IMG/VR virus record: IMGVR_UViG_3300017773_000003
Reading direction: 5' to 3' (one strand)
DNA length: 20,000 nucleotides
Source: an uncultured virus (IMG/VR IMGVR_UViG_3300017773_000003)
Lineage: Duplodnaviria; Heunggongvirae; Uroviricota; Caudoviricetes
The notes under the pieces are model-generated. The model saw nothing but the letters and a program-made list of their open reading frames with translations, did not search any database and was not told the DNA's origin. The translations under genes were made by a program, and so were the position numbers. Of the stretch, positions 2,333 through 20,000 are shown piece after piece; position 1 is the first letter of the stretch; each line of letters starts with the position of its first letter.

Positions 2333-3061
2333 ATGGATATTGAGCAAATGCATTTGGCGGTTCAGCAAGGAGTGGATAAGATTAATTCATTCCAAGCTGA
2401 CACGCTTTTATCTGAAGAAATAGATTTAGAGCTTAATAAAGCTATTGATAAATTTATTAATCTTAAGTATGGAAAAAATAATCTATATAACAAAGGGTTT
2501 GAAGAATCTCAAAAAAGAATAGATGATTTAAAAGAACTAGTTGTTACTGCAGAATTAGCAAGTACGTATGATAGCATATCTGTAAACAACTCATTTGTTT
2601 ATATATCTGAAGATTTACCTAAAAATTACAGGTATTTAGTTAAATCATTAGTTACTACTAAATATGAAAGATCTTGCGCGAGTTTATCAAAAAGAGAGCA
2701 GCAATTAATAGATAAAGTGCCAAATGCGGTTAATAAATTAGGATCTCTTAAAATTGTTCAGCAAGATGATATTCACACATTACTAGGGGATCCATTCAAT
2801 ACAACTAAAAAAAGTAAACCTTTAGCTGTTTTTGAAAATGGTAAGTTGTATATGTATACTAATGATATATTTATAATACACAACCTAATATTAACTTACA
2901 TAAAAAATCCTTCTAAAGTTTCATTATCTTTGGAGATCAATTGTGAGCTTTCAGAGCACACGCACCAAGAAATAGTAGATATGTCGATTAGTAGCATCTT
3001 GGAAGGTATTTCGGACCCAAGATACAAGACTCAGCAAATCGAGTTAGGTAAAAACGAATAA
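2333..3061 (+). CDS. Tail ring / head-tail connector protein (crAss-like gene 74 / ring-protein family)
   Basis: 242 aa. Motifs MH......DK.....EEID..LNKA..KFI..KY, GFEESQKRIDDLKELV, LPKNYRY, YIKNP and CELSEHTHQEIVDM match crAss-like ring proteins as recalled. Synteny agrees. Confidence 0.78.
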   Translation: MDIEQMHLAVQQGVDKINSFQADTLLSEEIDLELNKAIDKFINLKYGKNNLYNKGFEESQKRIDDLKELVVTAELASTYDSISVNNSFVYISEDLPKNYRYLVKSLVTTKYERSCASLSKREQQLIDKVPNAVNKLGSLKIVQQDDIHTLLGDPFNTTKKSKPLAVFENGKLYMYTNDIFIIHNLILTYIKNPSKVSLSLEINCELSEHTHQEIVDMSISSILEGISDPRYKTQQIELGKNE

Positions 3062-3098
3062 AGTTAAAATATATTTATAATTTAAATTTTTGTCACAT

Positions 3099-4043
3099 AT
3101 GAGACATGTTATAGTGAGTAAAGACGTCGCAGGACCAGCTGGAACAGCTGCTGCAGGCGCATTAGTTGGAATTGTTCAAGATGCTAACGGACAACCAACT
3201 TTAATGAATAGAACAACAGCGGCTGCTGCAAAACTAGCAGATTCGCCAGTTAAATTTGGTGTTTTAAAAGAAGCAGCTTCAGTAAGTTTAGCACTTTTAA
3301 ATGAAACTCCATGGCTAAAGCCATCGGAAATAGTTGCACAAGGTAATTTTTATCCACGTGCTTATGTAGCTGCACTACCTCAAATTTTTAAGAAAGATTG
3401 TACAGGAGCTGGTACTGAAGGTAAAGCAGCAACAATTAAAATTATCATTGAAGATAATCATTCAATGTTTAATTCTTATTCTTTTGAATTTAAAGCTGGT
3501 TCAGGTGTAGTTGCTACAGCACAAGCAGCTATTGATGCAATTCAAGCTCGTTTAGATAAAGGAGCTTGCCCTGAGATTGCAAGTGTTGCTTTAGCAGCTA
3601 CTGACGAAGTTCACATTACAATGGCAGCTGGTATTCGAGCTACATATATTTTTGATGCACAAGATTCAGGAATAGTTTTAGCTGAAGATTCTTCACAAGC
3701 TTTTGTTTTTGGTCACGGTACTTATGACGAAGTTGTTAAGAAAGAAAAAGAGCAACTTGGTAGAGATGTAGGTAACTACGATCGTTACACAGCATTACCT
3801 GCTGAAGAAGTTCTTAATGCAGAAGTTGGAAAAACTTATAATTCTTATTCATTTACAGCTAAGAATAATGCTGAAGGGCAAATTCGCGGTGTAGATAATA
3901 TGAGAAGCTATCAATTATATATTCCTTTTGGAGGAACTTATTTAGATGGTGAAGCTACTAGCGAGCACGGTGGTACTGAAGAAGAATTTCCAGCAATTAT
4001 GATTGCATTAGGTGTAACAGCTTACACAGAATTACAAGCATAA
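3099..4043 (+). CDS. Putative auxiliary capsid (decoration) protein, similar to the crAss001 gp36 type
   Basis: ATG at 3099 (MRHVIVSKD) is preferred over TTG at 3090, giving 314 aa, Ala-rich. The C-terminal pattern GHGTYDEV...EKEQLG..G..DR...P........KTYNSY resembles this family. It follows the ring gene and has its own terminator, as expected for a high-copy virion protein. Confidence 0.6.
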   Translation: MRHVIVSKDVAGPAGTAAAGALVGIVQDANGQPTLMNRTTAAAAKLADSPVKFGVLKEAASVSLALLNETPWLKPSEIVAQGNFYPRAYVAALPQIFKKDCTGAGTEGKAATIKIIIEDNHSMFNSYSFEFKAGSGVVATAQAAIDAIQARLDKGACPEIASVALAATDEVHITMAAGIRATYIFDAQDSGIVLAEDSSQAFVFGHGTYDEVVKKEKEQLGRDVGNYDRYTALPAEEVLNAEVGKTYNSYSFTAKNNAEGQIRGVDNMRSYQLYIPFGGTYLDGEATSEHGGTEEEFPAIMIALGVTAYTELQA

Positions 4044-4109: not shown

Positions 4110-4613
4110 ATGGCAGTTATAATGAACGCGGCTCCTAGCGGAGATTGTAAAGCAATGATTGTATCCTTTCAAGGATTAAAATCAAACACAAAATATTATG
4201 TTGATTTAAAGCATGTTGAAACTGGGCAAACTTTTACTCAAGGTCAAGTTCAGCCTGATAGTGACGCTTTTTCTTGGAGTGGACTTACTACTGGAGGAGT
4301 ATATGAAGTTACATTAAAAACTAAAACTTTAACAGGAGAAACATTTGAATTAAAACGCTATGTAGTGTCTACATGTTCTGTAGATAAATGCATGGTACTT
4401 TTAACTGATCAATTATTAAGCTGTGATTGCACATCACCAGCTTGTTCTGCTTTATTGCAAAAAGCTCAAAAAATATTATTACTAATTAGATCTTCGGAAG
4501 CTACGGCAGCTAGAATTACTAGACCAGAAGATAATGTGCTAGTTACTGACGCTCAAGCTCAGTACAAAAAAGCTGTACAATTCTGCGATAACGATTGTGA
4601 TTGCGGATGTTAA
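4110..4613 (+). CDS. Putative tail hub / fibre-docking structural protein (beta-sandwich N-terminus, Cys-rich helical C-terminus)
   Basis: 167 aa. The N-half is Ig/FN3-like (WSGLTTGGVYEVTL). The C-half is helical with CSVDKC, SCDC...C and terminal FCDNDCDCGC. Its position after the auxiliary capsid gene matches crAss-like tail hub genes. Confidence 0.5.
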   Translation: MAVIMNAAPSGDCKAMIVSFQGLKSNTKYYVDLKHVETGQTFTQGQVQPDSDAFSWSGLTTGGVYEVTLKTKTLTGETFELKRYVVSTCSVDKCMVLLTDQLLSCDCTSPACSALLQKAQKILLLIRSSEATAARITRPEDNVLVTDAQAQYKKAVQFCDNDCDCGC

Positions 4614-4637: not shown

Positions 4638-7600
4638 ATGGCTATAGTATTAGCGAAACCTTTTATACATAATACTGGTATAATTGAAGTTCAACCTGGA
4701 GATAGAACTGGTTATGAAAATCCAGTACTTGGTAAAATTTATAAATTTATAATTACTGATAGAGGTAGTGATGTACTATCTTTAGAAACTTTAGGTTTAC
4801 ATAGATGCTATAGTTCAGATAACGGCTTACAGCATGTCCGTATAAAAGTTAATGCTGAGTTAGGTTCAAATAAATACGGATGTACAATACTGTATGGTGA
4901 TGCAATATCATCATGGCCATGCACAGACACTGAGCCTGTAGGGGTAAATTCTTATACTGAAATAAAGCAATCAAAAAGCCCTGAAGAACATGTAATAGAA
5001 AGTTCACCAGCTATTCCAAAAGGAACTATTTTAGTTGAGTTAGCGCATGTAGTAGGAACTAGCGTAAGTACAGCAGCTAATTTTACTCCGACTACTTCTG
5101 ATTATTCTGGTTATACTGGAAATAATATACATTCTGCATCTTATGCTAGAGCATGTTCAGATGATTTAGCATTTAACTATGACTCTAGAGCTCCAAGGGG
5201 CCCTTTTACTTATTGCAATTATGATAATATATCTAAATTATCTGATCGGGAAATACAAGCGAGAACAGGACAAGTAGATGATACTGTAACTTATATATCT
5301 TTAGAGTATGCGTTAGTCCCTGGAACTAATGATACATATGTATTTTGGGTTGACATGTCTCCTCAAGTATGGGTAATGTATCAGGCTATTCTTTGGGATA
5401 TGACTTATGAGCAAACAGGGGCTTTAGGAAGTAATTTTAATCTTGAATTATATTCTATAAATGGCCCTACACAAACTTATGGACCAGGAACTCATACAAT
5501 TTGTGTTCAAGTAAATACAGGGTATGCAGTATTTATTGATACTGTTACAATCACAGTTGACGCTCAAGTAGATGGTTGTACTGATCCAGAAGCTGCAAAT
5601 TATAACGCAGCCGCTAACAACGATGACGGTTCATGTACATATAAAATTATAGGTTGTACAGATGCTACTGCTACTAATTATGATTCATTAGCTACTAATG
5701 CTTGTGGGAGTGCTTCTGATACTAATTTTTCAGGAGAAGAAGAAAATTTTTGTTGTTTATATAGTGGGTGTATAGATCCTATAGCATTAAATTATAACCC
5801 TCAAGCAAATGTCGATGATGGTTCTTGCCAATATGAAACTGCAGTGTATGGGTGTACGGATGCTAGTGCTTGGAATTATAATCCAAATGCTACTGTAAAC
5901 GAAACAAGTATAACAGACCCAAGAAATCCTTGTATTGATAAGCACTTTGGGTGTATGGACCCAGTAGCTTCAAATTATGAAGAAGAAATAGCTGACGGTG
6001 TTAATATGCACAAGATTACAGATTGTGATTACGAAGCATGTACTGACGCTAGTGCAACTAATACAAGTACTGGAATAACTGTTGCAAATTACACTAACAC
6101 TCAAAATACTGTATCTGGTGTGTATGGGTATTGGCCGCAACCAGCAGGATCAACTTCTACTGTATTAATTTCGTCTTCAGGTAATGATCCAAACGGAGAT
6201 AGTATACCAGACTTAGTTAATAATTCTGACTTGTGTACATACTCAATACCTGTAACAGAGCCTTGCCCTGCTGACAATTGGGATTTAGCTACTAACGTAG
6301 GTACTTTAGATTATAATTACATTTACGATGCAACACCTCTTAATGATGGTACATTCCAGTTAAATACAGATGCAGGCAAAGCTTGTATTTCTCAGTTAAC
6401 TCAATATACTACAGAAACTTGGGCAGGTATTTCATATAAAAAATATACAGAAGAACGAGTAAGAGTTCAAAGAATAACATGTGATACTACTGAGCTACAA
6501 TTACATACTCCTAATGTGTATGGAGAAGTAGTTTATAAAACTACAGGATTAACAGATCCTTCTGGAGCTCCTACAGCAACAGCTGGAGGTAATGCTCTAA
6601 CTAACATTTACACTAAAGATAGTGCGCTTGCTATTGCTGATGCTGCGGCTACAGCTGGGTGGGCAGGTACTATTACGTCTACAGTATACTATTATTTTGT
6701 TATTATTAGTACAGTTGAAGATCCTATATCTGGTATGTTAATAAATACAGATATACCTCAACCTGTAGCAAATTTATTCTCTGGAAATAATATTAGTAAA
6801 GTTACTTATCATGGAGGTTATTATGAGCCTTCTACTGGTAATTCAAGTTTATTTCAAACAGCAGCTGTAAATACAACAATACTTTCAGGATATAGAGCAG
6901 GTACAGATCCTAATGGATTAATATATAATAATGCATCATCTAGTTGTGGAGCAGCAGCTTCAGATAAGATGTACAATGTTTATAAAGTAGAAGTAATAGA
7001 TCCATGTGTGTCTGCAACAGTTGACTTTTCTAGTGTGTTTAATTGCTCTGTAATTGGATGTACAGATCAAACAACTACAAACCCTCAAACTGGATTAACA
7101 ATAAATGAAGATAATTATAATTCTAATGCTACTGCATCTAATGTAACTTCTTCAATTACAGGATTAACTGCTGACACTATAGTAGGTTCTTCTTACGAAC
7201 TAGAAGGTGGGTGCTATCATTTAGCATGTACTGATTCTAACTATGTAGAATACGATTCTAGCGCAACTGCTGTTACTGATTCTACAAAATGTCTTAATTT
7301 AAAATCGTTTGGATGTACAGATCCTAACGCATCTAATTATGATCCAAATGCAAATATAAATCAAACTGGGCTAGTTAGTATTATTCCAGGAGATTTTAAT
7401 AATCATACAGGATTATCTGAAGATACTTTTGCAACTTGGAGCAGTGATACTGCCCAGTCATTTAATGGTTGGCTAACTACATCAGGATGGACAGTTAATG
7501 CTAATGGGTTGGAGTTAAGTCTTGGGCAAAATAATAGCGCTTTAACTTACTTAGCTTTTACAGTTAACCCTAGCTCAACTTATAAATTAGAAATTAATCT

Positions 7601-10600
7601 TACACATTATAGTGGGCCTAAAAATGCCTTTCTAAAATTTAGCCCTTATTCTGGGGCTGCAGATATTATACCGGCAGGTACAAATAGCACAGCTATAGGA
7701 GCGATAGTTTCTGGTACTCCTACCGTGTTTACACAAACTAATATATCTTTTAGTGAAAATACATTTGGAATATCTTTTAAGCCTTCTAATAATTCTAATA
7801 TATTAGTACATTGGATAAAATTAACTCCAGAAAATAGTTTAGTAGATCCGTGTGTATATAATTTAGAAATACCACCGCTACACGATCATTGTTCTCCAGG
7901 ACTGTTTGAAGATGTATATAATTCTGATACTTCTGCGTTTTCTAACGCAATGACAGAGTATGATAATTATGAAAGAAATGTATCACATAATAATGCTAAC
8001 TATGGGGCTACTCCTGGATTATTTAATAGTTCTAATATATGTTTAGGAGATTTTTACAGTTTGTACACATCTGAGTCAGCATCTATTCATTCAGGAGCAT
8101 TTACTTTTACATATAATAAAGAGGTTAGCGAAGTTTTTGATAAAACTCTTGTAATTAATTCTTCTAATAAAGTATTATATCTTAACTCTAAAACTTCTAC
8201 AAATTATTATAACTTAAATAATTTTAAACATAACAATTCAAATGTAGGAGGGAATGTAGATAAAGTAGATCCTGTAGGCCTTCAACAAACATTAGATAAT
8301 TTAACTGCTAATGGGTATACAGCAGAAATTACATTATTCGAGAGCTTCCATATTAGATTTGATAAATCTATTAGATTTAAAATAAACCCAGAAAGGTGTG
8401 ACACCCCAAATGCTTGTACAGACAACGAAGAGTGGACTAACGAAAAAGCTTACACTCTTGAAGAAATAGCATCTCTTACAGCTCTTGGGGAGTTTGTGAT
8501 TGAAAACAATGAGGCTGACACTTTGTGGACTCGATTTGGATTTAATGGTCTTCCTGACGATACTAGTAATTTTTTAACTGGCCCTCACGCAAACTCATTT
8601 ATACCTGCAGTAGGCACTCCTGAAGCCGCTCAATATCCTGATGGGTATGTATATTCTGATAGTTCTGTGTCTCCGGATTGTGATGCTTCTTTTAAAAGAC
8701 CTGCATATAATGTTCTTAAAGTAGTAAAAGATGTGTATTACGGAGATTGCAGTTTTCACTCAATAAACTTAAGTCCATACATTGAAGATACACCTTCTTC
8801 ACAAATATTAGGTTGTACAGATCCCGCGGCAGCTAATTACAATAGTAATGCTACTGCAAATACTCCTGGGTTTTTAGGCAACACTGAATGTGTTTATTTT
8901 GTTACTGGACCTACAGGTGGTGATCCAACAATAGATGATACACCAGTTCCAACAGACGGATGCTCATATGATGTTTTGTTACAATTTATAGGAGCAGAAA
9001 CTGGCCCTAATTCTAATACCGTTCAAGCTGCTGTAACTATTATTTTATATCAAATATACATTGATGGTTTAGGTCAAACGCAATATGATGAGATAGGTAC
9101 AATAGCAGATTGGGAAGCTTGTGAAGACGGTTTTCAAGCAGGAGAAAATGGAATATATTTTGAACAACCTGTTAGTTATGATCCTTTTGATACAACTAGT
9201 CAAAATGTAATTACTGAATTAATACCTACAGGAGATAACGCAATAGCGGGAGCAACATGGTTAAACGAACAAAATCAAGCTGAGTTTGTAATAGAAATTA
9301 CACAATCTTATCCTGAATTAACTTACGTAGATTCAAATGGAGAAACAGTTACAGGGCTAACACAAACAGTGTCTCACAATTTCTTTATACCATTAGTTGT
9401 TGAAGGGTGTACAGCCGCACTATCTTTTAATTATAATCCAGATGCTACATGTAATGTAGAAGTTGGAGTAGAAGGTCAATGTATACCAGTTATAGAAGGG
9501 TGTGAAGCTGAAGGTAATTTTAATTCAAATAACGGGATTTTAAGCTCTGTAGGAGGAACAGGAAATCCATTAGCAGTTGTAGGGAATCCATTTACAGGCA
9601 ATACTTTGCTAGATGTAAACACTGATAATGGAACGTGTATACCTCTAATTAGCGGATGTATGGATCAAACAGCAACTAATTACAATAACGCTTTAACTGA
9701 CAATGGTGAAAACATAGATTACAGTGCTGCAGGACTAACTTCATCTTCTTATAATTTACCTTTTAATGTAAATGTTTCCGATCCAAGTTTTTGTTATTAT
9801 TGTCCAGTTTCTGGTATTACTGGGATAGACACTTTAACAGAAAATTTTGTTGTTACAGCTGATGAAGAAGGTACTGATAATGATATATCATATTCATTTG
9901 AAACTGCAGGACAATTTGATGTTCCAGGATTTTTAGTAGATAATACTACAGAATATGAAGTAACTTATAATTACATTAATACAACTACTTTAGCTACTGC
10001 TAGTCCGGCAATTACTCAGGTTTTTCAATCTACTACTAGTTCTGATCATGGTAGTTTTTATTTAAATAATCAAGCAGTAACAGCTCCATACTACAGATCA
10101 AATGGTACTTTAGTATTGTATAGTATTTCTGTAACTTATGAATATAATCAAGGTCCTGCGTACGATGGTACAGATACTACAATAAATAGATGTACAGGAA
10201 GTAATGCGCATACACTTACGTTCCTTATTAATCATTCAGGAGCTCCTTCTTTTGAGTTAGGGTGTATGGATTCTACAGCATTTAACTTTAATGTTAATGC
10301 AACTGTAGATAATGGAGCACAATGTATTCCATATATTTATGGATGTCTTAATCAAAACGCTGCAAATTATAATAATTATAATATTGGAAATGTAACTGAA
10401 ATAAGTGCAGGACCAGGTGTAGATGTTAATGTGCAAATAACAGCTGATAATGACCCTTCTAATTTTAACGATTTCCAATGTCAATTTTTAGGTTGTACAG
10501 ATTCTGCTGCTGATAATTATAATCCTCAAGCAACTGCAGGAGGATTAAATGCAGGAGTTAGTACAGAATCTACTGCTCCTAATTTTTGTGAGTTTAACGG

Positions 10601-13600
10601 TTGTACTGATTCTAATGCAAGTAACTACCTAAGCTATGCTAATGTAGATGATGGTTCTTGTCTTTTCCCTGGGTGTACAGATGCGGCTGCAGATAACTAT
10701 GATTCTAATGCAAATCTTAACGATGGTAGCTGTATTTTAACAGGCTGCATGGATCACGGGCAGTGGCCAGAAATAGCTACAGGAACTTTAACAGGTATTT
10801 CAAATGATATATTAGCAACTTATAATCCTCAAAATGTTACATCACCTATACCAGGAGTAGCTGCAAATAATTATAATTCAAATGCTAATGCACATAACGC
10901 AGCTACTTGTATTTATGAAGGGTGTAATGATCAAAACGCTAATAACTATGATGAAGTATTTACTGTTAACGATGGCAGTTGTATTTATTCAGGATGTATA
11001 GATACTTCTACACCTACAATTGTAGGAAGCGGGTTAGATATAGATATTTTAGGAGGATTTACTAACTACAATTCATCTGCAAATAGTGATGATTGTTTAG
11101 GGTCTTCTATAGCTTTAACTGGGCATTTACCTGTAGCAGGTTTACCGTATGGGTCTCAGCCAATAACATGGTTAGGAGCATCTCAGCCAGGAGGGTGGAT
11201 ACCTAGTAATGGTGGAGCAATAAATGTTTATCCAGACACTAGTAGTGGGTATAATAGCGGGGTTAAATTTGTTAGAAAGCCAGGATCAACAATAGCGTCT
11301 GACGTTTCGTTAGTTAGTTTACCTTTAACAGAAGATACTACAATTACTCAAGGACCTCAAATATCTGCTATAGGAGGCAGAAAATTATTACCAAATAGTT
11401 CTTATAAAATTACAATAACAGCTACAACTGATCAAGCAAGTGGTGTTAAATTCACTGTAGGACAAAGTCTTGGCTTGACCGCGTGGACCCCTACTGTTGA
11501 CGCAAACGCTAATTACAAAATAAATTACACTTCATTAAATCTAAGTAACCCTGGAGACTCAGATACTACAACAGTTCCGCTGCCAGGAATAAATCTGCCG
11601 TTAACATTTGGTGGAAGTAGTTCTGGGCAATTTTACACTACTGTTTTGTCAGAAGTTACTACGGTAGCTGCAGATCAAAATACATTATCTACATTTATTA
11701 TAGAATTTAACACAGGAGTAAATCATACTAATAGAAATATTAATCTTGTTATTAAAAATTTAAATGCAGGTAAAAATGTAATTATTCATGATATAAATAT
11801 TCAAAGAGATTTTTGTCCAGATGTTACAAGTACTACAGCTGATAATTCAATTGTATGTTATTTACATGGTTGCGGTATAGATGGATTGTATCCAGATGGA
11901 CATGTTAATGCAGGACAGCCTTGGGCTACTAATTATAATAACTTAGTTACGTATAGTATACCTAGTGGATCTTTTGGACCTAATAATGAACCTGGTTGCA
12001 CTAGAGGTGGATGTACAAATCAGTATGCAGATAATTACGACCCTTTTGCAACATTTGATAATGGTACTTGTACTATTTCTATATGTACAGATACTGCTGC
12101 AACTATAGATGGTAATAATGCATCTAATTATTATACAGCAGATGCAGATAATCCTAATTTAGTTGCTGGAACAATAGTAGATCCTACGCATTCAGATTAT
12201 AATGGAATTACTTTTAATGATGCAGGATGTGTATGGTTAGGTTGTACAAATAGCGCATCGTTTAATTATGATTCGCAAGCAACTACAGACACTACATTAA
12301 ATCCTGTACATACTAGTTCTTGTGAAGCTGTAGTGTTAGGTTGTACAGACACTTATGCTTATAATTATAATGATACAAATGGAGATGGTGTTGCTAATGA
12401 TCCTCCTGTAAATACAGATAATGGTAGTTGTTGTGATAATTTATATTACCCAATTAATGGTGTAGGAAAATTAAATGTAGAAGGTATTGGTTCTCAAGGT
12501 CCTCAATTATTTGATTCTGCAAAATTATATCAACTTGTTGACCCTTATGAGCCTAATACAGTAACTAGTACATCTACTTCATATACAATAACTTGTCCTG
12601 CTTCAGGAACACATCAGAAGGGAGGAAGACTTTATTTAGGATTTATTGGTAATACAAATCCAAATGATATATATGGAATAGGTAATGTAGGTTTAGAGCC
12701 TAATAATATTTATAATTTAAAAGCAACTGTTGTATATACAAACGAAACAAATGCATCATTTAGATTAAACCGTACTCCTGTTAGTGGTATAACTTATGAA
12801 GTAGAGCAAGTTGCTTATTCTGCCACACAAAATATTAACATAGATTTTGAGTATGAGTCTGATAATTGGAATTATTTTATTGAATTCTATGCTCTTAGTA
12901 ATAATGCTACTGTAACAGTTAGTAATTTAGAAATTAAAAAACATACAGCAGTTTTTCCTTTATTGTCTCAATATAATTGTGCGGGAACTGCAACAGTTGA
13001 TTTAGCTTTTGATTCTTTATATGATTTAGATCCTTTAGGAGATGGAGGTGAATCTACAATGACAATTACTAGTCATCCAGCTACTAGTGCGGGAAGTGGC
13101 GTACCTGATTATGGTACAACTATATTTACTTATAGTAATGTAGATTGGGGCCATTTAGATTCTTATTACAGAGATGAGTTATTCCATCCTACTGAAACTT
13201 ATACAGCTTCTAGATGGACAGCAGCTGCTAATTGTACTATTAGTAATCCTACAGCTGACTCAATAAAAGTAACTGCAGGAACAAGTGCAGGAGATACTGG
13301 AATGTCTACAGTGTTAAAAGCCTCATGTATTGATGGTACAGGAATTTTAACTTCGTATACTCCTAATGAAGATCCTCAATGTCCAACAATTTTAGTAGCT
13401 GGTGGGGGATTAAACCACATGAACACTGGTTATTTAGATAATGATAATGGAGCTATATCACAACAAACTACTTCTTATACTTTAGAGTTTGTATTAGATA
13501 CTGATGACAGTAATGTAGAAGTTGACGTTACAGATGGGGCAGGTAATATATTAGCTACTAGTACTGCAGGCCCTGGCGTAGAAGTTCGTAGAATGATATT

Positions 13601-16600
13601 TAGTGTTCCTACAGGAAAAGAAAATGAGTGCACATTACAACTTGATGCGTTATCTGATAATAAATATGCAACAATAAGTGGTCTTAGTTTAAAACGAGGA
13701 TTCCCTATTGGTATTTATGATACTCTAAATAGTGGTAAAGGTGTTGCATCGCATATTAGAATAATATTTAATTATCCTAATGCAAGTGGAGCGTTGACTG
13801 GATGTACTTATGATCAAACTGTAGTAGTGGCACCTCCTTGTCTAGTTCAAAGTGGATGTACTGACAATGGTTTAGAGGTTAATGGTGCTGGACTTGTAAA
13901 TGATCTTACCAGCGATAGTATGTCTGCAGTTAATTACAATCCACTAGCCAATACAGATGATGGATCTTGCGTTGCAAGAGTTTTAGGTTGTACTGATAGC
14001 ACAGCAAAGAATTATAGCGCTGCTGCTAATACAAACTGGACAACTGCAACTAATCACACATCTCCATGTTACCCTAAAGTGCACGGATGTACTGATCCAA
14101 CGGCTTGGAATTATAATAACTATTGGATGAATAATGTTGGTGGTGGAACATTTAACCAAGCTTTCCATAACACTATGGCTACTGAAGACTGGGTAAGTGG
14201 GACAGATCTTGGAACAGAATATACTGGAAGTGAAAAATTCTTAATACAGTCAGAATTAGGTCCAGGCAGTACAATGACTACTCAATTACAAAATGTTGAT
14301 GGATTTGAATATAGTGAACTTGTACCTGCACCTGATTCTCCATATTCTCAATACCCTGGTGCATTTGGTGATTACCCTCAAGCAGTAACAGGAGTTCTTG
14401 GTATTGATGTAAACGAGTCTATATCTAGCGGGCCAGGATCATGTATAGCAAAAGTATTTGGATGTACAGATTCAACAGCTACTAATTATAGTTCGGCAGC
14501 TAATACAGAATATGTACCATCTAATTGTTGTTACGATTTAGCTGCGGATGATCCATATATTGGACCTCTACCATTTATTACAGAAGAAGTTTGTGACTTA
14601 AGACCTTATGTAGCAGCTGATGGTGCATACTCTGCAAACATACAAGTAAATGTTAGATTAGCAAATGACAATATTGTAAGCGAATTAAAACTTGAATCAA
14701 CATTATATACTCTTACTTCTAAAAACAGAGCAGGGGTTACAATAGATACAACTACTGCTAGTTTTGCAACTTTATTAGATGCCGGTGTAAATCTTAAAAC
14801 TTATAAATACGCTCTAGATGCAGACGCTACTTTAGAAGCAGCGTACTTGAATAGTAACGTTACTAATAGCGCATTTGTTACAGCGCATATCGGTAATGAT
14901 GATAACAGAGCATCTAAAATAACAGTAGATGTTTCTTATCAATCTGCATATGAGCAAGGTCAAGCAGGGACTACATTATGTACAGGAGTTACACAAGACG
15001 TATCTTTGTTGCCAGCAATTGGTACTGAAACTGCTGGAGGGTTAGTATACAAAACAGATGCTGCAAATGATTATTCGTATATAGTAAAAACACAAACATT
15101 AGAAGACTCTGTGTTTGGGTGTAGAGGAACAAACATTTCTGGAGCTGTTGGAGCAAACATAGGAGACGGTATTGCAAATACACTTGCAATAGAGGCTGCG
15201 TGTACAACTGCAAATACAGCAGCTGATAGAGCTGCTAATTTAAATGATGCAGGATTTACTGATTGGTATTTACCATCTCAAGGAGAGCTAGTAGAAATAT
15301 ATAACGCTTTAGTAAATACAAATTTATATTCTGCTTTTGCTAATGGAGAGTATGTGTCATCTACTCAAGCAAATGCTAACGAAGTTAAAGCTGTTAATTT
15401 TGCAAATGGAACTGTTTCTAATATAAGTAAAGAGTCTACTTTTAAAGTGCTAGCTGTAAGAAGAACAAACTCTAGCCATATAGGGCAAGGAGATCCTTCA
15501 TGCAAATCGCTTTATGGTTGTACGGATCCTGGTTTTACAGAATATTACGCTAATCCTTCTGTTAATACAGACAGTGCAGGCGCCTTAATAGATAATGGTA
15601 CGTGTTTAACTCCTGCTGTAATAGGATGTACAAATGCAAACTATACAGAGTCCTATACTACTGTTAATGAAAATATAGTATCAGCAGCTAACTCTCCATT
15701 TGACTACAATATAACAACATATAGTGTAAGTGGGTCATCTACAATAAATGTAAACGATCCAACTACGTGTCAAACAGTTTTGATTCCAGGGTGTACAGAT
15801 CCAGATTATGCAAACTTTTATGGACCAGTTCAATCTTCAATAGGCCCAGACGGCCAAGATTTTTATGGAGGTAGCAATGGTCTCCCTAATAATATAACGT
15901 ATACTTTTACAAACGCTTATGGAGTTTCTGAAACTATTACTGCAGATCATTATAATAAAGATAACGGAACTTGCACAGTATCAGCAGAAGCAGGATGTAG
16001 AGATAAATTTTCAGATAGTGTAACATACACAGATATTCAAACAGGGTTACCTACAACTATTACTCCGACATTTTGTTTATACACGCCTACTGTTAATGTA
16101 GCATTGCCAGGCGCATGTGAAGGTGTTCACGGATGTACAGACACTGAATATGCAGAATCTAGTTATTACACTGCTGAGTGTGATGCAGAAAACGGAACAG
16201 AAGGTGTAGTTTGTGAAAATCTAGCTATATCTGCGTGTACAGATCCAAATTATTTAGAATATGATTCTAATCCTTTTGCAATAAGCAATCAAGATTTATG
16301 TGTAACTTTTAAAGTTGAAGGATGTACAGATTCAACATATGCTGAATATTACCAAGTAATAGCTGCAGGAAATTCTGTTCCTAATTTTGATCCTTTACCA
16401 GGAACTAACACAACAAGTGATAGTTCTTTAAACAATGGTAGTTGTATTAATTTAATAGGATGTGTAGATGCTACTAATACAGCTGCATATAATCCTTCTG
16501 ATTACACTACAATAACAGGAGATGGGGTATCAATTGCAAATGGTGGTAACGGTTACGCAGCTGGTGAATTAATTTACATAGGTATACAAAATGCTACGCC

Positions 16601-18569
16601 TATTTATACAGAGTCTATGTATTCTGCTAGTAATGGTTTATATGGAACCCCAAGTACTGGGTGTGACGGCGACACAATTGTTTCAGGGTGCGCTTTAACT
16701 AATTCTACTAATTATAATTATTTAGCAAATAACCCTTGTAATGTTCAAGGCGCAGACAATGATTGTTGTTACGAATCTATACTAGGATGTACTGATGCGA
16801 CAGCAGTTAATTTTAATCCTGCAGCAACTAATGACGATGGAAGCTGTGAAGATCACATAAATGGGTGCACAAATCCAGAGTCTCCTTCTTATAACCCCCA
16901 AGCAACTGAAGGTAACCCAGATGCTGCAACCGCTTGTATTAAAGTTATATATGGGTGTATTACTCCTACTGTAACTACATTAGATGGAGGAAGTGCTCCT
17001 TCATTCCCTTGTACTGAAGATAATACTCCTGGGTGCTATCAACAAGGATATGAACTTGGAAACGGAGTTGCTGTAACAGCTCCAAATACAGATTTTAGTG
17101 ATCCGTCTTATCAAGGAGACTTACATTGTTATCCTGTAATTGAAGGCTGTATGGATGCAACTGCTATAAACTACAATAATCCAGATCCAACGCAATCCGT
17201 AGTTATCCCATTAGATACTAGTGATAATGCGTTATTTATAAATGTAAATACTGCATGCAATGGTTGTTGTATAGCAAATGTAAATGGATGTACGGATTCA
17301 ACTGCAAGTAATTATAATCCACTAGCTACTGTTGATGATGGATCTTGTACATATGTAGATGGATGTATGGACGCTGCAGCATGGAATTATAATGCAGCAG
17401 CTACAAATAATAATGGAAGCTGCAGTTATTGTCAACAGTTTACTGTAAAAGCTACTATTACTAAACCTACAACAGATGAATCTTTGGATGGTATTATTGA
17501 GTTAACTGTAACTCCCGCTACTGGATTTAATATTTCTTGGACAGTTGGAGGGGTAGCTAATTCAGACTACGATGGATTAACTATTATTACAGGTTTGTCT
17601 GTAGGAGATTACGCATATACTATTTATGACACAACAGATACAAGCTCTGGTCCAAGCCATGAAAATCCAGCTACATTCTGTCAATTAGATGATAATATTA
17701 CTTTTGATATTATAGAGCTGTCTCCAGATGATTTTGGATGTACTGATGAAACAGCTTTTAATTATGATTCTTCTGCAATTGTTGATGATGGCTCTTGTAT
17801 AATTTACGGATGTACAGACCCAACGTCTTCTACATATAATCCTTTAGCTAATACAAATGACGGAACTTGTATATATATAGAAGGATGTACAGATGCTACA
17901 GCATGTAATTACAACTCAGACGCAATACTTGATAACGGAACTTGTACTTACCCAGTAGGATATTATAATTGTGACGGAGAATGTAATAATCCTATAGATC
18001 CATTAGTATATCCGCATCTTGCAGGGTACTGTGAAGAGCAAGTAGCAGAAGATTGTTTAGATGTAAATGCATTTAATTTTATTGGTAGAACAAGAACTTC
18101 AAGAATAAATATTAACCCAGAATCACCAAGTCAAATTGCAGCTTTACCAATAGCTGTTAGAGATGATGGGTCTTGTGTGTACTTAAACGAATGTGTTCCC
18201 CATGATATATATGATATTCAAGATGCATTAAAAAGAACAATTTCTGATCACAGTAAAACAGTTTACACTCAAATGCGTACTGGTATGCTAGAGCCAACTG
18301 ATATGGAAATATTATGGAAACTACAATTAGTAGACTATGCTCTAAATAGAACAGGAAATGACACTTTATTTAATTGTCAAGACTATGATCATTTAGGTCA
18401 AGTAACTTATTCAGAAGGTACAGTAACATCTACAAATTATTTAGATAGATTCCTTACATTTGCATTTAAACATGGAGATCAGCATTTTGTACAAGTTAGA
18501 AATGCACGAACTGCTCAATTAAATGTGGATAAATTTAAATCAAATAGAAACAAAAGACAAAGATCATGA
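4638..18569 (+). CDS. Giant (4643 aa) Cys-repeat multidomain protein, putative virion-associated adhesin/fibre
   Basis: A single uninterrupted 13.9-kb ORF, rich in T/N/S/G/D/C, with roughly 45-50 GCxDxxAxNY-type repeats interleaved with globular beta-rich domains. It has no obvious signal peptide and is embedded in the structural operon. The ORF is certain; the function is inferred. Confidence 0.8.
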   Translation: MAIVLAKPFIHNTGIIEVQPGDRTGYENPVLGKIYKFIITDRGSDVLSLETLGLHRCYSSDNGLQHVRIKVNAELGSNKYGCTILYGDAISSWPCTDTEPVGVNSYTEIKQSKSPEEHVIESSPAIPKGTILVELAHVVGTSVSTAANFTPTTSDYSGYTGNNIHSASYARACSDDLAFNYDSRAPRGPFTYCNYDNISKLSDREIQARTGQVDDTVTYISLEYALVPGTNDTYVFWVDMSPQVWVMYQAILWDMTYEQTGALGSNFNLELYSINGPTQTYGPGTHTICVQVNTGYAVFIDTVTITVDAQVDGCTDPEAANYNAAANNDDGSCTYKIIGCTDATATNYDSLATNACGSASDTNFSGEEENFCCLYSGCIDPIALNYNPQANVDDGSCQYETAVYGCTDASAWNYNPNATVNETSITDPRNPCIDKHFGCMDPVASNYEEEIADGVNMHKITDCDYEACTDASATNTSTGITVANYTNTQNTVSGVYGYWPQPAGSTSTVLISSSGNDPNGDSIPDLVNNSDLCTYSIPVTEPCPADNWDLATNVGTLDYNYIYDATPLNDGTFQLNTDAGKACISQLTQYTTETWAGISYKKYTEERVRVQRITCDTTELQLHTPNVYGEVVYKTTGLTDPSGAPTATAGGNALTNIYTKDSALAIADAAATAGWAGTITSTVYYYFVIISTVEDPISGMLINTDIPQPVANLFSGNNISKVTYHGGYYEPSTGNSSLFQTAAVNTTILSGYRAGTDPNGLIYNNASSSCGAAASDKMYNVYKVEVIDPCVSATVDFSSVFNCSVIGCTDQTTTNPQTGLTINEDNYNSNATASNVTSSITGLTADTIVGSSYELEGGCYHLACTDSNYVEYDSSATAVTDSTKCLNLKSFGCTDPNASNYDPNANINQTGLVSIIPGDFNNHTGLSEDTFATWSSDTAQSFNGWLTTSGWTVNANGLELSLGQNNSALTYLAFTVNPSSTYKLEINLTHYSGPKNAFLKFSPYSGAADIIPAGTNSTAIGAIVSGTPTVFTQTNISFSENTFGISFKPSNNSNILVHWIKLTPENSLVDPCVYNLEIPPLHDHCSPGLFEDVYNSDTSAFSNAMTEYDNYERNVSHNNANYGATPGLFNSSNICLGDFYSLYTSESASIHSGAFTFTYNKEVSEVFDKTLVINSSNKVLYLNSKTSTNYYNLNNFKHNNSNVGGNVDKVDPVGLQQTLDNLTANGYTAEITLFESFHIRFDKSIRFKINPERCDTPNACTDNEEWTNEKAYTLEEIASLTALGEFVIENNEADTLWTRFGFNGLPDDTSNFLTGPHANSFIPAVGTPEAAQYPDGYVYSDSSVSPDCDASFKRPAYNVLKVVKDVYYGDCSFHSINLSPYIEDTPSSQILGCTDPAAANYNSNATANTPGFLGNTECVYFVTGPTGGDPTIDDTPVPTDGCSYDVLLQFIGAETGPNSNTVQAAVTIILYQIYIDGLGQTQYDEIGTIADWEACEDGFQAGENGIYFEQPVSYDPFDTTSQNVITELIPTGDNAIAGATWLNEQNQAEFVIEITQSYPELTYVDSNGETVTGLTQTVSHNFFIPLVVEGCTAALSFNYNPDATCNVEVGVEGQCIPVIEGCEAEGNFNSNNGILSSVGGTGNPLAVVGNPFTGNTLLDVNTDNGTCIPLISGCMDQTATNYNNALTDNGENIDYSAAGLTSSSYNLPFNVNVSDPSFCYYCPVSGITGIDTLTENFVVTADEEGTDNDISYSFETAGQFDVPGFLVDNTTEYEVTYNYINTTTLATASPAITQVFQSTTSSDHGSFYLNNQAVTAPYYRSNGTLVLYSISVTYEYNQGPAYDGTDTTINRCTGSNAHTLTFLINHSGAPSFELGCMDSTAFNFNVNATVDNGAQCIPYIYGCLNQNAANYNNYNIGNVTEISAGPGVDVNVQITADNDPSNFNDFQCQFLGCTDSAADNYNPQATAGGLNAGVSTESTAPNFCEFNGCTDSNASNYLSYANVDDGSCLFPGCTDAAADNYDSNANLNDGSCILTGCMDHGQWPEIATGTLTGISNDILATYNPQNVTSPIPGVAANNYNSNANAHNAATCIYEGCNDQNANNYDEVFTVNDGSCIYSGCIDTSTPTIVGSGLDIDILGGFTNYNSSANSDDCLGSSIALTGHLPVAGLPYGSQPITWLGASQPGGWIPSNGGAINVYPDTSSGYNSGVKFVRKPGSTIASDVSLVSLPLTEDTTITQGPQISAIGGRKLLPNSSYKITITATTDQASGVKFTVGQSLGLTAWTPTVDANANYKINYTSLNLSNPGDSDTTTVPLPGINLPLTFGGSSSGQFYTTVLSEVTTVAADQNTLSTFIIEFNTGVNHTNRNINLVIKNLNAGKNVIIHDINIQRDFCPDVTSTTADNSIVCYLHGCGIDGLYPDGHVNAGQPWATNYNNLVTYSIPSGSFGPNNEPGCTRGGCTNQYADNYDPFATFDNGTCTISICTDTAATIDGNNASNYYTADADNPNLVAGTIVDPTHSDYNGITFNDAGCVWLGCTNSASFNYDSQATTDTTLNPVHTSSCEAVVLGCTDTYAYNYNDTNGDGVANDPPVNTDNGSCCDNLYYPINGVGKLNVEGIGSQGPQLFDSAKLYQLVDPYEPNTVTSTSTSYTITCPASGTHQKGGRLYLGFIGNTNPNDIYGIGNVGLEPNNIYNLKATVVYTNETNASFRLNRTPVSGITYEVEQVAYSATQNINIDFEYESDNWNYFIEFYALSNNATVTVSNLEIKKHTAVFPLLSQYNCAGTATVDLAFDSLYDLDPLGDGGESTMTITSHPATSAGSGVPDYGTTIFTYSNVDWGHLDSYYRDELFHPTETYTASRWTAAANCTISNPTADSIKVTAGTSAGDTGMSTVLKASCIDGTGILTSYTPNEDPQCPTILVAGGGLNHMNTGYLDNDNGAISQQTTSYTLEFVLDTDDSNVEVDVTDGAGNILATSTAGPGVEVRRMIFSVPTGKENECTLQLDALSDNKYATISGLSLKRGFPIGIYDTLNSGKGVASHIRIIFNYPNASGALTGCTYDQTVVVAPPCLVQSGCTDNGLEVNGAGLVNDLTSDSMSAVNYNPLANTDDGSCVARVLGCTDSTAKNYSAAANTNWTTATNHTSPCYPKVHGCTDPTAWNYNNYWMNNVGGGTFNQAFHNTMATEDWVSGTDLGTEYTGSEKFLIQSELGPGSTMTTQLQNVDGFEYSELVPAPDSPYSQYPGAFGDYPQAVTGVLGIDVNESISSGPGSCIAKVFGCTDSTATNYSSAANTEYVPSNCCYDLAADDPYIGPLPFITEEVCDLRPYVAADGAYSANIQVNVRLANDNIVSELKLESTLYTLTSKNRAGVTIDTTTASFATLLDAGVNLKTYKYALDADATLEAAYLNSNVTNSAFVTAHIGNDDNRASKITVDVSYQSAYEQGQAGTTLCTGVTQDVSLLPAIGTETAGGLVYKTDAANDYSYIVKTQTLEDSVFGCRGTNISGAVGANIGDGIANTLAIEAACTTANTAADRAANLNDAGFTDWYLPSQGELVEIYNALVNTNLYSAFANGEYVSSTQANANEVKAVNFANGTVSNISKESTFKVLAVRRTNSSHIGQGDPSCKSLYGCTDPGFTEYYANPSVNTDSAGALIDNGTCLTPAVIGCTNANYTESYTTVNENIVSAANSPFDYNITTYSVSGSSTINVNDPTTCQTVLIPGCTDPDYANFYGPVQSSIGPDGQDFYGGSNGLPNNITYTFTNAYGVSETITADHYNKDNGTCTVSAEAGCRDKFSDSVTYTDIQTGLPTTITPTFCLYTPTVNVALPGACEGVHGCTDTEYAESSYYTAECDAENGTEGVVCENLAISACTDPNYLEYDSNPFAISNQDLCVTFKVEGCTDSTYAEYYQVIAAGNSVPNFDPLPGTNTTSDSSLNNGSCINLIGCVDATNTAAYNPSDYTTITGDGVSIANGGNGYAAGELIYIGIQNATPIYTESMYSASNGLYGTPSTGCDGDTIVSGCALTNSTNYNYLANNPCNVQGADNDCCYESILGCTDATAVNFNPAATNDDGSCEDHINGCTNPESPSYNPQATEGNPDAATACIKVIYGCITPTVTTLDGGSAPSFPCTEDNTPGCYQQGYELGNGVAVTAPNTDFSDPSYQGDLHCYPVIEGCMDATAINYNNPDPTQSVVIPLDTSDNALFINVNTACNGCCIANVNGCTDSTASNYNPLATVDDGSCTYVDGCMDAAAWNYNAAATNNNGSCSYCQQFTVKATITKPTTDESLDGIIELTVTPATGFNISWTVGGVANSDYDGLTIITGLSVGDYAYTIYDTTDTSSGPSHENPATFCQLDDNITFDIIELSPDDFGCTDETAFNYDSSAIVDDGSCIIYGCTDPTSSTYNPLANTNDGTCIYIEGCTDATACNYNSDAILDNGTCTYPVGYYNCDGECNNPIDPLVYPHLAGYCEEQVAEDCLDVNAFNFIGRTRTSRININPESPSQIAALPIAVRDDGSCVYLNECVPHDIYDIQDALKRTISDHSKTVYTQMRTGMLEPTDMEILWKLQLVDYALNRTGNDTLFNCQDYDHLGQVTYSEGTVTSTNYLDRFLTFAFKHGDQHFVQVRNARTAQLNVDKFKSNRNKRQRS
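15018..15464 (+). other. DUF1566 / Lcl-like C-type-lectin-fold domain inside the giant ORF
   Basis: Pattern IG....GGLVY ... IGDG..NT..I...C.....AA.....L...GFTDWYLPSQGEL..IY ... EYVSSTQ ... VNF.NG......K.....VLAVR. Confidence 0.8.
17430..17705 (+). other. SprB-repeat-like Ig module inside the giant ORF
   Basis: TITKPT.....DGIIELTV......ISW......ITGLSVGDYAYTIYD......C matches the SprB repeat pattern DG.I...V......YSW......L.GL..G.Y.VTV.D..GC. Confidence 0.65.
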
Positions 18570-18991
18570 CACAAGGAACAATTACACTTACGCAAACTAA
18601 AGGTGAATTTTTAGAATTACTAAAAGGTTTGTGGAGCGCATCACACTTAAAAGGTAAAGAACTAAGTGTGTTAATTAATGATAATGCAGCAGTAATTAAA
18701 AATTTATTAGAAAATTTATTGTGGGTAAATCCTAGTAATGAATTTGCAACTGTAGCTCGTCAAATATCTAGACTTCAAAAAGCAAAAGCAGACGGATGGG
18801 AAGCAGAAGTCATAGCATTAGAAGATGCTAATAAAGATATTATTGATGCTAGAAACACAGAAGTAGCAAATATGAAAACAGCTCTAGAAGAAGAAGTTGC
18901 ATTAGAATTAAAATTAATTCCTGATGAACTTTTTACAGATGAAGTAACAGCAAATATACTATTTTCTTTAAATTCGATTATAAAAAAATAA
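18566..18991 (+). CDS. Small acidic helical/coiled-coil phage protein, possibly a fibre assembly chaperone (loosely DUF1617-like)
   Basis: 141 aa. Its start overlaps the giant ORF stop (ATGA at 18566-18569). It is predicted helical by eye and ends EEEVALELKLIP.......TANILFSL..II. It lies directly upstream of a fibre gene. Confidence 0.55.
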   Translation: MTQGTITLTQTKGEFLELLKGLWSASHLKGKELSVLINDNAAVIKNLLENLLWVNPSNEFATVARQISRLQKAKADGWEAEVIALEDANKDIIDARNTEVANMKTALEEEVALELKLIPDELFTDEVTANILFSLNSIIKK

Positions 18992-18992
18992 A

Positions 18993-20000
18993 ATGCGAGT
19001 AGGGCAAAGCTACATAACATCAGGCAATAAAACTGTACAGATTAGTGATAACACTTCTCCTTTACAAGAAATTAGCTTTTTAAGTTTACTTAATAAAACT
19101 GATTATACTTGCCGTGTAGTTATTAGGCTTAGCACTACTGATACATCAACATTTCCAGATGGATATAAACATTTGTATGAATTTAAATTAGAGCCTGCTG
19201 AAACTAGAAATTTTGGCTTAGAAGATTTCCCATCAGGAGCTACAGGTGCTACACACTTTGGCGGTAGCGCTACAACAAATAAATTAGAAGTTTACAGTGA
19301 AGACGAATTTCCACATTTATTTGTTTTTTATTCAGTTCATGATATGTCTAATCCAAGATCTTTAACAGGAGTACAAACAAACTTTGTAGGAGATTCTGGT
19401 TCAGGTGGAGCTCAAGGTTTAGTTCCTCCCCCAAGTGCAGGAGACGCTGCAGCAGGTAAATATTTAGATTCTGATGGGACATGGACTACTCCTCCTGACA
19501 CAAATACTACTCCAGATGCAACTAATGTAGCTGCAGCAGGGGCATTGATGGATTCAGAAGTTACTAATTTAGCACAAGTTAAAGCTTTTTCTTCTGCTGA
19601 TTACGCTACTGCAGCACAAGGTACTAAAGCTGACACAGCTCATGGCTGGGGTAATCATGGTAGTGCCGGATATAGCACAGCTACAAGTGTAGAGAATAAT
19701 GCAGACGTTACTGATACAACTAATGTTACTTCGGCTGGAGCTCTAATGGACTCTGAATTGACAGACCTTGCTGGCGTAAAAGGCGTTACAATATCAACTC
19801 TTCAGGTTAAGCCTTCAGAGGGTGCTTTCGCCAATGGAGATAAAACCAAACTCGATGGCATCGCTACAGGTGCAGAAGTTAATGTACAAAGTGATTGGAA
19901 CTCTTCAAGTGGAGATAACCAAATACTTAATAAACCTACTGTAACCGCATTTGCTGGCGCAGTTTCTACGGGAAATATATTATGGAAGCAAGCTAAAGTA
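18993..20000 (+). CDS. Tail fibre protein, 3'-truncated (not in the supplied ORF track)
   Basis: Translated by hand: ATG at 18993, open for 336 codons to the window end (MRVGQSYITSGNKTVQ...ILWKQAKV). It carries common phage fibre shaft motifs GLVPPPSAGDAAAGKYLDSDGTW, DATNVAAAGALMDSE (two copies), YATAAQGTKAD, AHGWGNH and DKTKLDGIATGAEVNVQSDWNSSSGDNQILNKP. Confidence 0.85.
   Translation, partial: MRVGQSYITSGNKTVQISDNTSPLQEISFLSLLNKTDYTCRVVIRLSTTDTSTFPDGYKHLYEFKLEPAETRNFGLEDFPSGATGATHFGGSATTNKLEVYSEDEFPHLFVFYSVHDMSNPRSLTGVQTNFVGDSGSGGAQGLVPPPSAGDAAAGKYLDSDGTWTTPPDTNTTPDATNVAAAGALMDSEVTNLAQVKAFSSADYATAAQGTKADTAHGWGNHGSAGYSTATSVENNADVTDTTNVTSAGALMDSELTDLAGVKGVTISTLQVKPSEGAFANGDKTKLDGIATGAEVNVQSDWNSSSGDNQILNKPTVTAFAGAVSTGNILWKQAKV

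Follow-up and report, generated by a model that had tools for sequence, protein, structure and literature searches.

The 20,000-nucleotide stretch of DNA analyzed here (the window) comes from an uncultured virus of the Caudoviricetes (IMG/VR record IMGVR_UViG_3300017773_000003), and all of its long open reading frames (ORFs) lie on the plus strand. Its dominant feature is a giant ORF of 4643 amino acids (aa; 4638..18569), which runs from a variable N-terminal region through a series of Cys repeats and an Lcl_C domain to a small C-terminal module, the subject of this report. A first-pass annotation, made from the letters alone, had proposed that this module is a tail hub protein of the kind known from the crassvirus crAss001, which holds the giant protein to the virion by its C-terminus and onto which the remainder was added from the N-terminal side.

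The giant gene, its C-terminal module and their neighbors

The interior of the giant protein comprises approximately 23 Cys repeats (GCxD..A.NY / DDGSC) with larger modules between them and a single Lcl C-terminal domain (PF07603; residues 3522-3608, 15201..15461; Pfam E=8e-09, 36.3 bits against a cut-off of 34.9). Several stretches of about 110-150 aa ending in motifs such as WIKLTPE or ISGLSLKRG resemble carbohydrate-binding modules, and no Pfam family matched them. The last Cys repeat motif, DDGSC, is at residue 4509, just ahead of the module, and the linker and last half-repeat that lead into it (ALPIAVRDDGSCVY; alignment A4) occupy 18084..18191. The 125 residues translated from 18192-18566 form the C-terminal end of the ORF and consist of a conserved helical core (residues 4519-4618, 18192..18491), which is the core of alignments A1 and A4, and a basic tail (residues 4619-4643) that, together with the TGA stop, takes up 18492..18569.

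The abrupt switch after the last repeat to a charged, helical composition with a basic tail, which the first-pass annotation had noted, is borne out both by residue counts and by the helices of an AlphaFold2 model. Lysine and arginine account for 12.8% of the last 125 aa, where the protein as a whole averages 2.9%, with only 0.04% of 125-aa windows as extreme; K+R+D+E rises to 24.8% from 14.0%, and S+T+N+G falls to 25.6% from 37.8%. The final 30 aa carry a net charge of +6, and the final 19 aa are 32% K+R. The model, built on the 27-sequence alignment A4 with construct residue 1 corresponding to protein residue 4483, has a mean predicted local distance difference test score (pLDDT) of 62.2 and a predicted template modeling score (pTM) of 0.51. 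It places helices at construct residues 42-66, 71-89, 98-104, 119-130 and 136-160, of which the first two make up a helical hairpin (block pLDDT 79-86 over residues 41-80), and a small beta-hairpin is formed by the last half-repeat. A single-sequence AlphaFold2 fold of the module (pLDDT 39) was uninformative. What 18192-18566 encodes is a genuine conserved domain rather than an accident of composition.

Directly upstream of the giant gene is a gene for a 167-aa protein (4110..4613) that combines a variable N-terminal beta-type domain with a helical, Cys-rich C-terminal half. On the downstream side, the TGA of the giant ORF overlaps the ATG (as ATGA) of a gene for a conserved helical protein of 141 aa with no cysteine (18566..18991; alignment A2), which is followed by a conventional tail-fibre-like gene that runs off the window (18993..20000; PHROG tail fiber families, best E=1.3e-20). 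At its other end, the window opens with a crAss-type major capsid protein gene (3..1370, with an open 5' end; PF23898, E=9.3e-79), the product of which shows about 32% identity to the major capsid proteins of gut crAss phages. Between this and the 167-aa gene lie a 281-aa gene (1467-2312), a gene resembling tail ring protein 3/4 (2333..3061; PF25710, E=4.3e-05, below the Pfam cut-off, with the homologue in the relative G003 over it at 36.9 bits), and a 317-aa gene (3090..4043). The last of these corresponds to the crAss001 auxiliary capsid gene in position and size only, having neither a Pfam match nor a PDB profile match. The TTG start listed for the 281-aa gene is probably too early; the homologue in L006 begins at a Met matching the internal MSKKIVIRR. 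The end of the giant gene recurs with 100% identity in three metagenome records (L009-L011).

The module family: size series, conservation gradient and natural split

A HMMER scan of 1.84 billion representative proteins (E<=0.001) listed 14 proteins, 13 of which we accepted as module proteins; these are 40-5180 aa in length, several being fragments at contig ends, and all of them match at, or close to, the C-terminus. The remaining one (P0011), a repeat protein with a repeat-driven match of 28 residues, was set aside as spurious. Pattern scans of viral and metagenome contigs recovered 45 further loci, 5 viral and 40 metagenome, and a hidden Markov model of alignment A1 placed the module at the end of the ORF in 46/46 sources (the window and the 45 loci), a count that includes one 400-aa fragment and a split form in which the module is a separate ORF, itself of 167 aa (3 loci, two of which are one contig). 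The carriers are uncultured marine crAss-like phages.

The family shares a core of about 100 aa with invariant columns W, N-C, Y, D and F..F (A1, A4). The module takes two forms. In the giant-protein group it has the motif ...KHGDxHF and a basic tail that is conserved in kind throughout the group; in the group of shorter proteins, of 1044-1620 aa, it has five more cysteines, an insert of about 100 aa in the central loop and often another ending, commonly a basic patch and then ...IDGIxGLEI at the very end. At six loci (L003, L017, L019, L021-L023) the module is followed by a Cys-rich extension of 70-110 aa. The extensions of the giant-group relatives L003:10001-10657, L017, L021, L022, L023 and P0005 have a Cys cluster of the form CxCxC ... 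CxxCC ... C and a basic ...RN(R/K)NY end.

The module appears to be previously undescribed, in the sense that neither Pfam nor PHROGs nor the searched phage records contain it. PDB sequence searches with the module, the upstream 167-aa protein, the 141-aa protein and their profiles returned nothing below E=0.2, and tblastn of the same three against 50,697 GenBank phage records (E<=1) gave no match. A PHROG scan of 27 module members found no consistent family, 2/27 touching phrog_26291 (unknown function, best E=0.0025), and Foldseek searches of PDB and BFVD with the module model gave no match at E<=0.001. A search of literature listings for giant fibre genes of marine crAss-like phages turned up nothing relevant.

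Module-ending proteins encoded in the same slot as the giant gene form a size series of 171 (L059), 316 (L061, L062), 392-393, 1044-1620 and, in the window, 4643 aa, and the same slot holds other giants of 4835 aa with a separate 167-aa module ORF (G003) and of 5204 aa (G002). The representative search adds module proteins of 723, 731, 1287, 4548, 4619 and 5180 aa. Thus, relatives in which the domain stands nearly alone, or carries a shorter extension, exist much as the first-pass annotation had envisaged. At the lower end of the series, the L059 and L061 proteins have in common their first 30 residues, consisting of one Cys repeat, and a near-identical module, and they differ by a single 145-aa insert that lies between repeat and module. 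A word-index search for further short stand-alone forms, with the 171-aa protein as the query, gave one weak repeat-only match.

When the window protein is compared by BLAST with its shorter relatives, only the repeats and the module align, and never the N-terminus. The closest full-length relative, P0003, is 58% identical over the 4643 aa; the module core reaches 84%, tying with the best 100-aa window (top 0.5%), and residues 1-250 are the lowest of the giant protein at 34-38%. In 59 random pairs of relatives of 1300-1700 aa, mean identity climbs from 0.22 over the first decile to 0.48 in the ninth and 0.38 in the tenth, which contains the variable loop insert. The pattern of an ordinary fibre, with a conserved N-terminal attachment region and a variable distal C-terminus, was found in neither comparison, the gradient being reversed in both.

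Most phage fibres are anchored by their N-termini and bear a distal functional tip. If the giant protein followed this rule, then the module would be such a tip, for instance one binding a receptor or substrate, and the fact that the N-terminal 870 aa can be aligned between giants is consistent with an anchor at that end. However, tips are usually the most variable part of a fibre, whereas the module is the most conserved part of these proteins and is common to ones with N-termini that BLAST cannot align. Moreover, a small, partly basic helical domain is atypical for a tip, and it is in the interior that the lectin-like modules (Lcl_C) are found. Hence, we consider a distal tip very unlikely.

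The split form is found in L025 and in L004, a contig that also appears as L026 and as G003, and P0007 provides a third case. Here, the giant ORF ends in ...GDNIII-stop and an ATG follows 1 nt later, opening the 167-aa ORF that contains the linker, the last half-repeat and the module, so that linker and half-repeat serve as its N-terminal leader. The L004 and L025 contigs are 93% identical in DNA and their module ORFs differ at 11 codons, 10 of them synonymously; judged at the codon level, the separate module ORF is under purifying selection. The break falls within the last Cys repeat, and the two chains may re-associate at this divided repeat. Programmed frameshifting at the junction was considered and rejected: it reads ATA TAA G ATG, with no slippery run and with an upstream stop in the new frame. 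The junction looks like two coupled genes.

This separate downstream ORF, together with the C-terminal place of the module and its conservation beneath differing upstream regions, raises the alternative that the module is a folding or oligomerization element for the long repeat region and not a point of attachment. These are properties typical of fibre chaperones: C-terminal intramolecular chaperone domains and tail-fibre assembly proteins likewise take the form of a conserved C-terminal element or of a small gene after a long fibre gene. The predicted helical hairpin would also suit a coiled-coil-like oligomerization. Against this, the 171-aa relative has one 22-residue repeat and the 316-aa relative one extra module, leaving little to fold, and no peptidase S74 or chaperone family was matched in Pfam or PHROGs. 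Further, the N-terminus, which would then be the required anchor, is the least conserved part of the protein. Unlike the known chaperones, the module persists in a protein with almost no fibre; because that 171-aa protein leaves almost nothing for a chaperone to fold, the module itself is likely to be the functional core. Accordingly, we assign a folding or oligomerization role a rather low probability.

The constant slot and the crAss001 tail hub

The module gene also has a constant neighbor. A gene of the 167-aa family is directly upstream of the module-bearing gene in 10/10 sources with the start of that gene visible (two being the same contig). A search made from the other side, with the 167-aa family (alignment A3), gave 80 viral loci and 81 sources in all; the ORF following the family gene is not in view in 9 of these, is cut by the contig end in 27 and is complete in 45, and in 42/45 of the complete cases it bears the module at its C-terminus. 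At the other three loci (L089:8325-14707, L114:5778-12782 and L110), a different, module-free ORF of 1729-1927 aa intervenes and the module is assigned to the ORF after it, which is of 393 aa in L089, of 392 aa in L114 and cut by the contig end in L110. Because of these intervening proteins, it appears that the slot can hold two appendage genes.

Members of the 167-aa family are 165-187 aa long and have 12 Cys columns that are invariant in 38/40 aligned members (A7), the same two cysteines (positions 93 and 109) being missing from the two giant-group members, those of the window and G003. In this giant lineage, the module has also lost five cysteines. A PHROG scan of 40 family members found no consistent family, and the 167-aa protein shows no likeness to any Pfam family or PHROG or to the crAss001 hub protein THA; an ESM Atlas look-up gave weak (<0.9) leads to fn3/Ig-like domains. 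Paralogy between the module and the helical half of the 167-aa protein was considered and discarded, hhalign giving a probability of 2.2%.

On the other side of the module gene, a homologue of the 141-aa protein is present in 41/46 module sources; in the remaining 5, the contig stops 5-1443 nt past the module gene. In the giant group, its gene is the immediate downstream neighbor of the module gene, and elsewhere one fibre gene separates the two. This protein has no Pfam, PHROG, PDB or GenBank-phage match and no likeness to THB or THA, and its ESM Atlas neighbors are viral only with no Pfam family among them; we regard it as an alternative candidate for a hub or assembly protein.

In crAss001, the gene order is ring 3/4, the auxiliary capsid gene AUX, THA (gp38, 215 aa, PF25724), THB (gp39, 114 aa, PF25711) and ring 2 (R2), in keeping with the first-pass statement that two adjacent small tail hub genes follow the auxiliary capsid gene. 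According to passages of the crAss001 structural report (PMC10172136), the hub is an A2B trimer that is seated on rings R1 and R2, is stabilized by disulfides and holds residues 1-26 of gp22, and THB comprises a compact part and a C-terminal arm that extends into the adjacent hub. In the window and its relatives, the order is the ring 3/4-like gene, the 317-aa gene, the 167-aa gene, the module gene, the 141-aa gene, fibre and lysis genes, R2, R1 and the muzzle gene MUZ. Thus, like THB, the module is encoded after a small Cys-containing gene, past the genes of the capsid module and before ring 2, a position observed at 42/45 loci, and it is a small, predicted helical unit with a C-terminal arm in phages that carry rings R1 and R2, the seat of the hub in crAss001. 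The 167-aa gene is in the THA position by order, taking the 317-aa gene as a putative AUX.

On this parallel, the 167-aa protein would be THA, the module would be THB with an extension, and the giant protein would contribute a subunit to the collar around rings R1 and R2, with 12 copies presumed by analogy with crAss001. The 12 conserved cysteines of the 167-aa family would agree with the disulfide-held hub of crAss001, and the helical core and tail of the module with the compact part and arm of THB. The absence of any recognized THA or THB where R1 and R2 are plainly present points in the same direction. In the relatives, genes for ring 1, ring 2, ring 3/4, the muzzle and the capsid all score well, and in 5/5 relatives rated 97-100% complete both R2 (E 8e-30 to 6e-41) and R1 (about 1e-58) were found. 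A six-frame search at E<=10 of these five and two further records rated 70-74% complete gave 0 THA/THB matches, with the crAss001 control at 189 bits, and the first-pass expectation that no separate canonical hub B gene would turn up elsewhere was upheld in all seven. These phages either have no collar or have a collar made of proteins that current profiles miss.

Nevertheless, direct comparison of the module with gp38 and gp39, which the first-pass annotation had proposed, disclosed no likeness at any level tried. Searches with hmmscan against Pfam (E<=1) found no THA, THB or AUX match for any window protein and neither crAss_THA nor crAss_THB among 40 members of the 167-aa family. Profile comparison by hhalign of the module, 141-aa and 167-aa families with THB and THA alignments gave probabilities of 0.06-1.3% throughout, including 0.13% (A1 vs A5) and 0.17% (A4 vs A5) for the module against THB and 0.7% (A3) and 1.3% (A7) for the 167-aa family against THA. 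The THB alignment (A5) has 19 sequences and the THA alignment 23, both being shallow with all members at least 46% identical to crAss001. No crAss001 chain, THB being 7qoj_I, is among the 50 Foldseek or 50 VIA matches listed for the module, the query model having a mean pLDDT of 62. The conserved Cys pattern of THB has no counterpart in the module, the 141-aa gene competes for the same role by virtue of its size, and THB is a free protein of 114 aa whereas the module ends proteins of 171-5204 aa. For the module as hub B and for 4110-4613 as hub A alike, the gene position that the first-pass annotation relied on holds, and the likeness in sequence, profile and, for the module, listed folds fails to appear. 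Distant homology to the hub could still underlie the parallel, since the module model is of moderate quality and the THA and THB alignments are shallow; on balance, we think the hub assignment improbable.

Three further genes of the relatives deserve mention. Beside the lysis genes of L003 is a 113-aa ORF (L003:16668-17009) that weakly matches the thioredoxin fold (PF00085, E=3.4e-4, below the cut-off); it may serve in disulfide formation, the virion genes of this relative being unusually Cys-rich. A 745-aa ORF of the same relative (L003:13056-15293) carries at its end a C-terminal sorting domain for type IX secretion (Por_Secre_tail, E=1.9e-12), which is odd in a gene of a phage structural region and, by its presence, points to a Bacteroidota host. 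Finally, the muzzle homologue of G003 (L051:11061-17081) is 2006 aa long as against 1371 aa in crAss001, and its strong match to the Pfam muzzle model (E=6.5e-50) is confined to the first 350 or so residues.

Proposed C-terminal attachment of a growing appendage

The reading that we favor, and to which we give about an even chance, takes the module as the fixed, virion-proximal end of a modular, adhesin-like appendage, with growth by accretion at the N-terminus. The ancestral unit would have been a protein of about 170 aa, comprising one Cys repeat and the module, encoded right after the gene for a Cys-rich partner of 165-187 aa; repeats and lectin-like modules would then have accumulated ahead of it, at the N-terminus, until the largest proteins exceeded 5000 aa. 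The giant protein would be held by its C-terminus, with the fast-evolving N-terminus displayed outwards. The first-pass claim of a C-terminal attachment, opposite to that of ordinary fibres and reached by accretion at the N-terminus, finds support in the size series and the polarity of conservation. We infer that the module contacts the virion, at a site likewise inferred, and that the 167-aa protein is its partner there. Our guess from gene position is that it docks at the collar around rings R1 and R2; a site on the capsid is equally possible, and bearing on this is the fact that the genes of the module pair also follow the head module. Passages of the crAss001 report (PMC10172136) raise the possibility that uncharacterized proteins replace the head fibres in other groups.

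The same passages (PMC10172136) describe crAss001 fibres as docking by N-terminal residues: 1-26 in the tail fibre gp22, and 1-38 and 1-58 in the head fibres gp21 and gp29, respectively. Like these three, which that source (PMC10172136) depicts with binding domains pointing outward, the giant protein would be a crassvirus appendage that projects its binding domains from the virion; unlike them, it has a conserved C-terminus and is most variable at the N-terminus. Because the crAss001 fibres dock by their N-termini, the polarity proposed for the giant protein is unusual for the order. It would be the polarity of the capsid decoration protein Hoc of phage T4, which binds the capsid via its C-terminal domain, displays N-terminal Ig-like domains and is encoded near the head module. 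The proposed likeness to Hoc is one of polarity and gene position, and the module differs in being helical, in being accompanied by a Cys-rich partner gene and in the scale, up to 5204 aa, of the proteins that it ends.

The architecture of the crassvirus virion is known from one gut phage. In its marine relatives, the capsid, rings and muzzle persist, but the hub genes cannot be recognized; the hub slot is filled by a conserved pair of small genes, one of which grew thirty-fold while keeping the same C-terminal end. It is conceivable, if doubtful, that the 167-aa protein and the module are the highly diverged tail collar of marine crassviruses, with the hub B subunit having become an open-ended platform. 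Were this so, the collar would be crowned by half-megadalton adhesins, held through their C-termini and grown from about 170 to more than 5000 aa, and one lineage would have split the hub part from the appendage again. The 171-aa, 316-aa and split forms offer ready minimal constructs for tests of module binding. The series as a whole represents a rare, well-documented natural case of one-sided domain accretion, and the module pair is a concrete candidate for how marine crassviruses attach accessory adhesins.

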